A stretch of 64,000 bases of DNA from Candidatus Micrarchaeota archaeon (lineage in GTDB: Archaea; Micrarchaeota; Micrarchaeia; Anstonellales; Bilamarchaeaceae), in NCBI GenBank assembly GCA_038046805.1, contig JBBSVO010000004.1:32001-96000 (forward strand). Direction: 5' to 3'. Position numbers: made by a program. Shown here piece by piece: positions 42,001 to 45,000 of the stretch (its first letter is position 1; each line of letters starts with the position of its first letter).

Positions 42001-45000
42001 ACTGGTTAAGGTCAATGTTGAAATTCCCAAAAATATATCCAAAAAACAAAGGGAATTGCTTGAGGAATTCAAAAAAGAGGATGGAAAACTGTTCGGGGTG
42101 TTTTAGGTGGGCGAGGATAGAACAGACAAAGAAATATCCAAATTCAGGAGCGAAATAATAGAAAGATTCATCTCAATAGAGCAGCTTGTCGATATCATAA
42201 TCTCATACCACTATTTCGGATATCTTAATCTTGATTTTGTATCCCAGGTATTATATGATGACAGTACTAATTTTGGATTGAAATGCAGGATAATTGAAAA
42301 AACGACCAATGCGGACAAACAGAAAATAAAGGACTTATATAGACTGAACAAAATAAGGAATATATTCGCGCACAGCAACCATGCGATGCTTGGAAATGGC
42401 GGGGGAAAGGAAGGAAATGAAGGTGAAGAGATATTCTACAATCCGCGCTCCATTGGAGAAAAAATGGATTTCGTGAAATTGCATGAAGAATTCACGAAAA
42501 AGGCGAATGATGCACTCCCATATCTGCTTGAATTATTAAAGAGCAAAGAAAACGAGGTTCCGGTTTCTCTAAGGGTTTTCAAGGATGATTTTCGGAAGCA
42601 ATTATTTGAGATGATTAAAAGGGGGAGGCCTCAAATCTCCGAAGTTGAAACCAAAGAGTAAAAAATCATTTTTTTCTTAGAGTTCTTCCGATTTTATCTC
42701 GTTCAAGTATGGTTTCTGCCACTTCTGGTTCAAAATGCGCAAGCATTAATTCGAATTTTCTTTCTCCTGCAAAATATCGGTACATATGATGGACTACGGA
42801 ATCACTTACAAGCTGATTTAGGTCTGTTTCCTTATCCCATCTCCTCAACGCATCCAATATGGCAATCATGAACTCCTGTTTGATATCATCATAATCCGGT
42901 TCTGCGAAACATTTCTATTGGCAAAGTGAATGTTCTTATAATCGGAGAGTGTGCGCGATTGAAAAAGAAGTGTTCAAAATACTGAGTTACAAACATACTT
43001 TCCTCTGCTTTGCTCAGTAATCTAAGCTCTGGTAGACGAAGAATTGAAATTCGCTCAAACGGTGTTTCTATCTTTTCCTTTCTGGATTCCCATGCCCTTC
43101 TGGCAATTTCAGTTCTCAATTCCGAGCTTAGTTTAGCCCATCGTTTTCGTATTATTTCGCTTCTTTGTTCGGAGGTCTTTCCTTCCCAGATTTGCCAAAT
43201 TGCCCCCCCCTCTCTGCTCTAAATCAGCAGTTCTCTTTCGTGCTATTTGTTTTCTTTGCCCAGTAGTTTTGTCCTTCCACATCGCCCTGCTTCGCCTGCT
43301 TCGTTCTGCATCTTTTTGAAATGACCTGGCTTTCCTTAAAATTTCTTTTCGTTCTTCATGGCTTTTCTTTGCCCAAAATTGCGAAAGTGCTCTTCTCCTC
43401 TTTACGCGGGTTTTCTCGGCCCGTTTGGCAATTCTTATCCTCCTTTTAGGGGCAATTCTTTTTTCTCTCTTTCTCGCAATCTCGCTCCTTTTTTCAGCAC
43501 CTTTTTGCTGTTCTCGTTTTATTGCGGCATCACTTCTTTCTTCGTTATTTTCCCTCAATGCTATCTGCCAGATTGCAGTTCCTCTTCTTTCTCTTTCCCT
43601 ATTGCAGTCTATGGATATTTTCTTTCTTTGCTCCGAGGTCATTGCGGCAGTTATTTGCACTGTTGTTTTTCCGATTCGTTTTCTTGTTTCCTCTGCTCGT
43701 TGTACAATTTCTCGCAGGTCTTCGGAATTTTTAACTCTTTGACGATAAGACCACAGTTGATTGTCTACTACTTTGCTAGCTTCTTCTGGAGTTAGGTTCT
43801 TTACTTCGCCCCGGGGAAAGTATGCTGCCATGTATTCTTTAGTAGTATCCTGGCCGAGTCCATGCTTGAAAAACATTTCCTGAGCAATACGCTTCCTCGC
43901 TCTGCCTTTTTTCAATTCTGTGGCTAATTTTAATGCGTGAACAGGTAAAAAACGAACATATTTTCTTTTAGGTTGCATAAAAATCAGTGACTGCTATATG
44001 TCAGGACAAAACCTCAAACCCGCAACCGAAAACTTAACCTGCTCGCACCCTCGGCCCCCCGCATTTTGGATTGTTTCGCGTTTTGAGTTTCGTGTTTTGC
44101 GTCTTGTTTTCGATTCCGAGACGCTGAACTTCAAGACTCGAAACGCAACTTCGCCAAGCGGGTGCTCTGCTATTGCTTACCCAGTTGACTTGTGATTCTC
44201 CAGGGCTTTTACGCTGGAGCGCTTTTGCCCTTATAAAACAGAAGTCAAAAGGGCCCTGAGCTACGAGCCCTAAGCAAAATAAAATTTGGACTCGGAGGGA
44301 TTTGCGAATAATTGGTTTCTGGCCTGCAGCCACTAGCTAGTATCCAGTAGCTTAACTATGACGGAGATATGTAAATTACACTGTCTCCACGCAACAGAAT
44401 TGTTCCCATTCCGCGCTTTACTTCGCCATTTATTATTTGCTCTGCATTATCAAGCACTATATTCATGTGAACATCATAAGCAGCCATTACCCCGCGGAAT
44501 TCTACTCCGCCTTTAAGGCCGATAACTACCGTATTGTTCAACGAACCGTTCAATACATCAAATGGTCTTTTTTCTGGCATAAATTTTCACCTCTATAAAA
44601 AACTAAAATCTAAACAGATTAAGAACACGACTGAATTTAAAGGTTATCTTTCACACTCCCAGGGTTCGCGACAGATATTATATCACCCCTTTGGCTTCCT
44701 GCCTTTGACCTTTGGAGGTTTTATATCTGGGTATTCCTTGCATAACATCTCCGGATTCGCATATGGTTTATACCCTATAGTCTCCATTACGCGAAGTAAA
44801 AGAAATGCATCCTGAAATTGGTTTCCACTTAGACTTATCTGCTTCAGAACTTCGATAACATTAGTATACGATTTCCGCTTTCCTGTACAGAGTTTCAAAA
44901 CATCTACACTCGGATTTGATGCCCCTGCAAATTGGAAAACTTTAGGAACAAGAGAAAAAACAATTCCGGAAAGTATGCCAGAAACCTCCCACCCCTCAGT

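Follow-up and report, generated by a model that had tools for sequence, protein, structure and literature searches.

On the minus strand of the window, by which we mean the whole 64,000-nt stretch of Candidatus Micrarchaeota DNA analysed here (C4:32001–96000 of genome G000, a 1.2-Mb assembly that is 86% complete), the pieces of a tRNA-Ala(GGC) lie downstream of an Sm/Lsm gene in the order 3′ piece, linker and 5′ part, the last of which covers tRNA positions 1–59 (44270–44042) and is interrupted by two introns. The arrangement at 44300–44042 very probably represents a circularly permuted gene of type IV, with the junction in the T loop between positions 59 and 60. The features are as follows, in window positions.

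44356–44580, minus strand: Sm/Lsm gene (Pfam LSM), directly upstream
44301–44355, minus strand: 5′ leader; 44306–44303 form the central-helix strand that pairs with tRNA 54–57, and 44302–44301 are the two leader bulge bases
44287–44300, minus strand: 3′ piece, 14 nt (position 60, 3′ T-stem, 3′ acceptor strand and discriminator A73)
44271–44286, minus strand: AU-rich intervening sequence (linker), 16 nt
44256–44270, minus strand: exon, tRNA positions 1–15
44173–44255, minus strand: putative D-loop intron at 15/16, 83 nt, with 3/4 pairs in the central helix and a 4-bp outer helix; contains a repeated intron element (44254–44184)
44152–44172, minus strand: exon, tRNA position 16 to 37, which carries the GGC anticodon
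44064–44151, minus strand: putative anticodon-loop intron at 37/38, 88 nt, with 4/4 pairs in the central helix and a weak outer helix
44042–44063, minus strand: exon, positions 38–59; G55 in the T loop is a family trait of tRNA-Ala
43979–44041, minus strand: 3′ trailer, whose first base completes the bulge and which ends in a run of five T

The Sm stop codon lies 55 nt before the 3′ piece, and tRNA-Ala stands behind Sm in many relatives, which marks the locus as syntenic. CCA is not encoded in the 3′ piece (44287–44300). Right behind the trailer lies a basic 281-aa ORF (43133–43978, minus strand) that is also present in the relative G001 and absent behind the other three permuted genes described below; it belongs to no known family, and Pfam, NCBIfam, PHROG and Atlas give no support for a homing endonuclease. 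ARAGORN and Rfam detect no tRNA at the permuted locus, and the gene therefore escapes such standard tRNA finders.

The order of the pieces agrees with the genome-wide survey's note, which had placed a 14-nt 3′ piece at 44300–44287, a 16-nt linker at 44286–44271 and the 5′ part at 44270–44042. Intron lengths were fixed by comparison with orthologs, whose sequence the excision restores, and both excision sites show BHB geometry (3/4 central pairs in the D loop and 4/4 in the anticodon loop). The 88-nt anticodon-loop intron (44151–44064) is upheld by both approaches. The D-loop intron, previously given as 81 nt, is revised to 83 nt (44255–44173, at 15/16) because the distance from the start of the gene to A21 is 102 nt, compared with 19 nt in most intron-free orthologs. 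The rebuilt tRNA is accordingly 72 nt long rather than 74 nt. It differs at 2/72 sites from the intron-free ortholog of G054, the closest among 22 distinct intron-free Ala(GGC) genes compared, and the two sites form one compensated T-stem pair. The acceptance of the rebuilt molecule by ARAGORN, which had been offered as evidence, proves little, because 11/11 shifted 81-nt excisions are also accepted.

The intron element that the survey had placed inside the D-loop intron is present at 44254–44184. This structured element of ~70 nt, with two A-rich strands, occurs at 19 places in the genome, 15 of which are inside listed tRNA genes at differing positions; it has no Rfam match within window 40000–48000 and looks like a transposing intron body. 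A tRNA-Pro-like gene (window 22079–22320, minus strand) that ARAGORN misses has three insertions, one with the repeated element. In a tRNA-like locus at C3:77800–78120, part of the interior is present in two to three copies that surround intron elements, a local duplication of tRNA parts. Behind a tRNA-Thr(GGU) with D-loop and anticodon introns (window 45539–45802, plus strand) stand a tyrosine integrase and the pair AbiEi/AbiEii (45951–48798), likely an integrated element.

At the 59/60 junction, tRNA 54–57 can pair with 44306–44303, and 3-nt bulges place the cuts after 59 and before 60. The 4/4 pairs of the central helix and the 3-nt bulges recur in 5/5 permuted sequences, as does a Watson–Crick first outer pair, despite flanks that differ even inside a genus; four of these five sequences share ancestry. 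The outer helix is short, with 2 pairs in G000 and 1 in G001 and G021, and the unconstrained fold favours a pairing that deviates slightly and lies 2.7 kcal/mol lower than the forced BHB. The survey's claim that the sequences after 59 and before 60 can pair stands for the 4-bp central helix and the first flanking pair, which make up the conserved junction signal, and fails for the long trailer/leader duplex: extended pairing is no better than shuffles in 10/10 tests, with 23/300 shuffles as low in G000 and 50–125/300 in the other nine. The long duplex was consequently dropped as evidence for permutation, and the junction is better described as a relaxed hBH substrate. The fold of the whole precursor has a z of −3.2, to which the stems of the tRNA and of the introns also contribute. 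Across the separated pieces, every pair of the acceptor and T stems is maintained, and at 6–67, 7–66 and 50–64 both partners have changed. A permuted gene with two introns is thus supported, at the level of sequence, by BHB motifs at three junctions, a single copy, compensatory pairing and conservation in five sequences with divergent flanks.

The exact 14-mer of the 3′ piece occurs twice in the 1.2-Mb assembly, at the permuted locus and in the 3′ exon of tRNA-Ala(UGC), and when the genome was scanned for the layout without regard to isotype, one of 10 raw matches, the permuted locus, passed; both results speak against chance as the source of the arrangement. Three Ala tRNA genes were found in the genome, one per anticodon, and nowhere else does the 3′ piece have a gene to which it could belong, so the permuted locus is the sole Ala(GGC) gene found, and GCU and GCC together account for 29% of Ala codons in long ORFs. 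At 86% completeness, the assembly may lack a second, linear Ala(GGC) gene or genes for RNase P. Within these bounds, tRNA-Ala(GGC) of G000 appears single-copy, permuted and, on sequence grounds, very probably functional.

The tRNA genes of this genome are heavily interrupted: ARAGORN recovers 2 intron-free genes, and a structural scan finds 22 linear ones, 8/22 with an insertion at 59/60, plus one extra match judged spurious. A scan of junctions between 15 and 48 gave 0 matches for a second permuted tRNA, and in spliced alignments of 43 queries from G013 none scores better in permuted than in linear order, several isotypes scoring too low to judge. Order-wide patterns with linkers of 1–31, 35–65 and 66–96 nt, lengths 32–34 being covered by a stricter pattern only, retrieved just four permuted genomes and one non-tRNA match among 176. 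A further pattern search gave 22 matches, one of which is the known permuted locus, the others being tandem genes or chance; viral contigs searched for the layout gave 0 matches.

To place the gene among its relatives, 83 candidate loci were examined. A script classified 76 of them, 71 as linear and 5 as permuted; of the remaining 7, inspection by eye showed 2 to be linear and 5 to be something other than tRNAs. The Ala(GGC) gene of G012 was likewise judged linear by eye, and 21/99 family genomes are without a call. The permuted layout stands beside the Sm gene in 4/75 classified family genomes (G000, G001, G021 and G098) and in the metagenome contig L238. The survey had reported the same layout in one relative; this is borne out and extends to two further genera and one metagenome contig. 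The linker is T-rich in all five sequences and measures 16 nt in G000, 17 in G001, 13 in G021, 51 in G098 and 9 in L238. Two introns are present in G000 and G001, a single anticodon intron in G021 and L238, and a single D-loop intron in G098, which suggests that introns come and go atop the permuted frame. Of the 71 linear Ala(GGC) genes, at least 15 are interrupted by an intron at 59/60 and 52 lack one there, the other 4 being left uncalled. The T-arm pattern with G55 is found in 83/99 family genomes; in most genera G55 accompanies a 7-nt D loop that does not have the G18–G19 pair, whereas U55 genera retain GG. At four further loci (L139, L225, L483 and L487) a second copy of the first 11–15 nt of tRNA-Ala immediately precedes a linear gene, and at L308 (G004) the opposite strand behind Sm carries a degenerate sequence resembling tRNA-Ala, together with the 3′ part of a tRNA that a scaffold gap interrupts.

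The same pieces could be read as a 3′-truncated pseudogene preceded by an accidental orphan duplicate of a tRNA 3′ end, for instance an integration scar. The 14-mer has the same sequence as the 3′ exon of tRNA-Ala(UGC), an integrase lies 1.6 kb from the locus, and orphan 3′-end duplicates do occur: in an Aenigmatarchaeota record (L596, 480–413, minus strand), one precedes a complete linear Ala(GGC) gene by 42 nt. The integrase, however, abuts another tRNA; no other Ala(GGC) gene was found in G000, and G001, G021 and G098 each have a single anticodon-arm match. Moreover, the separated pieces co-vary, the BHB strand is kept across genera, and the 3′ piece of G021 fits its own 5′ part and not the paralog in L109, which makes a pseudogene very improbable. 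That the order was created by shuffling during assembly can practically be dismissed: all sources are metagenome assemblies and repeats near tRNAs are common here, yet the order is common to five sequences whose linkers, introns and flanks differ, and an RNA-library contig matches 44260–44576 without a difference.

A split gene is hardly more plausible than a pseudogene. The 3′ piece and the 5′ part would then be separate transcripts joined in trans, with the linker as terminator, or the 5′ part would borrow the 3′ exon of tRNA-Ala(UGC). The linker is T-rich in all five cases and could act as a transcription terminator, a point against a single transcript, and adjacent split halves are known in Aeropyrum (PMC3218864). 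Against this, a linker of 9–17 nt in 4/5 sequences leaves, by eye, no room for a promoter between the pieces, and the long GC-rich leader duplex on which known split tRNAs rely is absent, the pairing being no better than shuffles in 10/10 tests.

For the permuted gene, the piece order, the three BHB motifs, their conservation and the enzyme genes suggest how a mature tRNA might be made. A single transcript would comprise the leader, 3′ piece, linker, 5′ part and trailer, probably by read-through from the Sm gene, and would fold so that the acceptor and T stems form. A 317-nt metatranscriptome contig identical to 44260–44576 fits such read-through: it starts in the Sm gene, spans the 3′ piece and the linker and reaches only 11 nt into the 5′ part; it comes from one study and may be DNA carry-over. 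No spliced, circular or mature form was seen in the contigs of one RNA run at a depth of 2.7, in which the uncovered part is uninformative. The endonuclease would cut both introns and the leader/trailer hBH junction. EndA of G000 aligns over its full length with the epsilon2 enzyme of ARMAN-2 (4FZ2; E 1e-137), and that enzyme cleaves a relaxed 59/60 hBH intron in vitro (PMC3239211). RtcB would join the ends into a circle, from which RNase Z and protein-only HARP would cut out the linker before CCA is added. Genes for RtcB and the CCA enzyme are present, and an RNase Z-like gene falls just under the cut-off (287 vs 293 bits).

HARP is proposed for the linker cut because no RNA-based RNase P was found in a search that, among its components, covered the RNA and Rpp29. 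RNase P RNA was found in 9/12 genomes searched and not in G000 or G001, and the RNase P RNA family profile gave no match in G000 either. Rpp29 was found in 2/5 genomes searched and not in G000, G001 or G021; the slot before rps17 in G000 (C3:30191–30430) holds no Rpp29 ORF. At C6:38085, G000 has a tRNA-Phe gene where G021 has RNase P RNA. The empty slot and the tRNA-Phe gene point to a possible loss of RNA-based RNase P in genus g1. A HARP-family gene is present in G000, G001 and G021; it was recognised by protein models named PIN_5 or RNA ligase partner, which we take to be HARP. Dependence on HARP would not be general to permuted genes, since G021 has RNase P RNA as well as HARP and G098 has RNase P RNA and no HARP match. 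HARP measures the distance from the T loop to the 5′ end of the acceptor (PMC12217051), which suggests that it should act only after closure of the T loop.

Judging from its flanks, the gene most likely descends from a linear one interrupted by a 59/60 intron: the end of that intron at its 3′ side would have turned into the leader, and the intron body into the trailer. The leaders end in the way that 59/60 introns do: their motif, CGCA/CGCG, is found at the same offset in 16/26 distinct 59/60 introns of linear G55-type tRNA-Ala genes, the other 10 having variants, and the G001 trailer begins with the repeated intron element (profile match E 6.7e-6, in a small search). The heptamer-like look of the G000 and L238 trailers was not counted as an intron relic, as such arrays also flank linear genes. 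Two models, as set out in PMC3978253, are duplication of an intron-bearing gene followed by loss of its outer parts, and copying from a circular precursor; the leader motif and the G001 trailer element fit both equally.

The number of origins was addressed with a marker tree built from RpoB′, EF-2 and RpoA′ in 27 genomes (G001 20% and G021 33% filled). It groups G000, G001, G021 and G016 (98/99) and places G098 with G004 next to genus g2, behind a 100/99 branch; in g2 the gene is linear and carries a 59/60 intron. Forcing the permuted genomes into a single clade is rejected (p 3e-5, for a six-genome group picked after the tree was seen), and so, on EF-2, is a single clade of the three permuted genomes (p 3.5e-4). 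Kae1 on the contig that bears the G098 permuted gene groups with G004 (98/98), which argues that this gene is not mis-binned; its clade tests are marginal (p 0.045 and 0.073). The Sm tree alone does not reject a single clade of permuted genes (p 0.17), and RpoB alone leaves the species order unsettled. The DnaK tree conflicts with RpoB and was left out of the species order. DnaK of G000 and G021 (window 38724–40634) groups with distant genera, unlike RpoB, a possible transfer. Only in G000 and G001 was a DUF2666-like gene found upstream, which makes it of no use for a tree. We lean slightly towards two origins of the permutation in the family; spread of the permuted gene by transfer seems unlikely, and tree error, or an ancient origin with reversals, is a lesser but real prospect. 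The fuller account, in which the same tRNA flipped twice at the same site, each time from a linear 59/60-intron gene, and, RNA-based RNase P having been lost in genus g1, protein-only HARP opens the circle there, is offered tentatively, at a little under even chances.

Permuted tRNAs in archaea are represented in the searchable literature by two genes of one species, tied to an (alpha-beta)2 endonuclease, with an origin from intron-containing genes as a hypothesis. These are the permuted 59/60 tRNAs of Thermofilum pendens, with one 37/38 intron (PMC3218864). As there, the present gene is archaeal and single-copy, with a 59/60 junction bearing a BHB and a 37/38 intron in the 5′ part. It differs in belonging to DPANN, in an epsilon2 enzyme, in its alanine identity, in having two introns (83 and 88 nt), in not encoding CCA, in a linker of 16 nt compared with 1 or 7, and in having syntenic linear orthologs with a 59/60 intron on hand. 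Cyanidioschyzon merolae has type IV permuted tRNAs for Ala(UGC), Arg(CCU) and Lys(UUU) (Soma 2014, PMC3978253), likewise joined at 59/60, and its Arg(CCU) also carries a D-loop intron (14/15); that system is eukaryotic, and Table 1 of the review gives no permuted gene more than one intron. The same source describes maturation via a circle in algae and linkers of 1–74 nt in known permuted genes, a range that includes the 16 nt of G000. Micrarchaeum ARMAN-2 shares the phylum, the enzyme type, relaxed 59/60 introns and several introns per gene; the accessible parts of PMC3239211 and PMC12397907 report no permuted gene there, and the present introns are far longer than its 13- and 25-nt test substrates. 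No published permuted tRNA in DPANN or with two introns was found in the literature searched, which was mostly open-access, supplements with possible ARMAN tRNA tables lying outside it.

The layout is thus extended to DPANN with an epsilon2 endonuclease; it adds a gene whose maturation would take three splice events, and it supplies HARP with a circular substrate of natural origin. Its main value lies in the evolutionary series around it: because permuted, intron-bearing and intron-free forms share one locus across the family, the models of origin become testable, including recurrence at an intron hot spot. If the double flip and the role of HARP are true, the family would provide a phylogenetically resolved series for the rise of permuted tRNA genes, together with a three-junction substrate.
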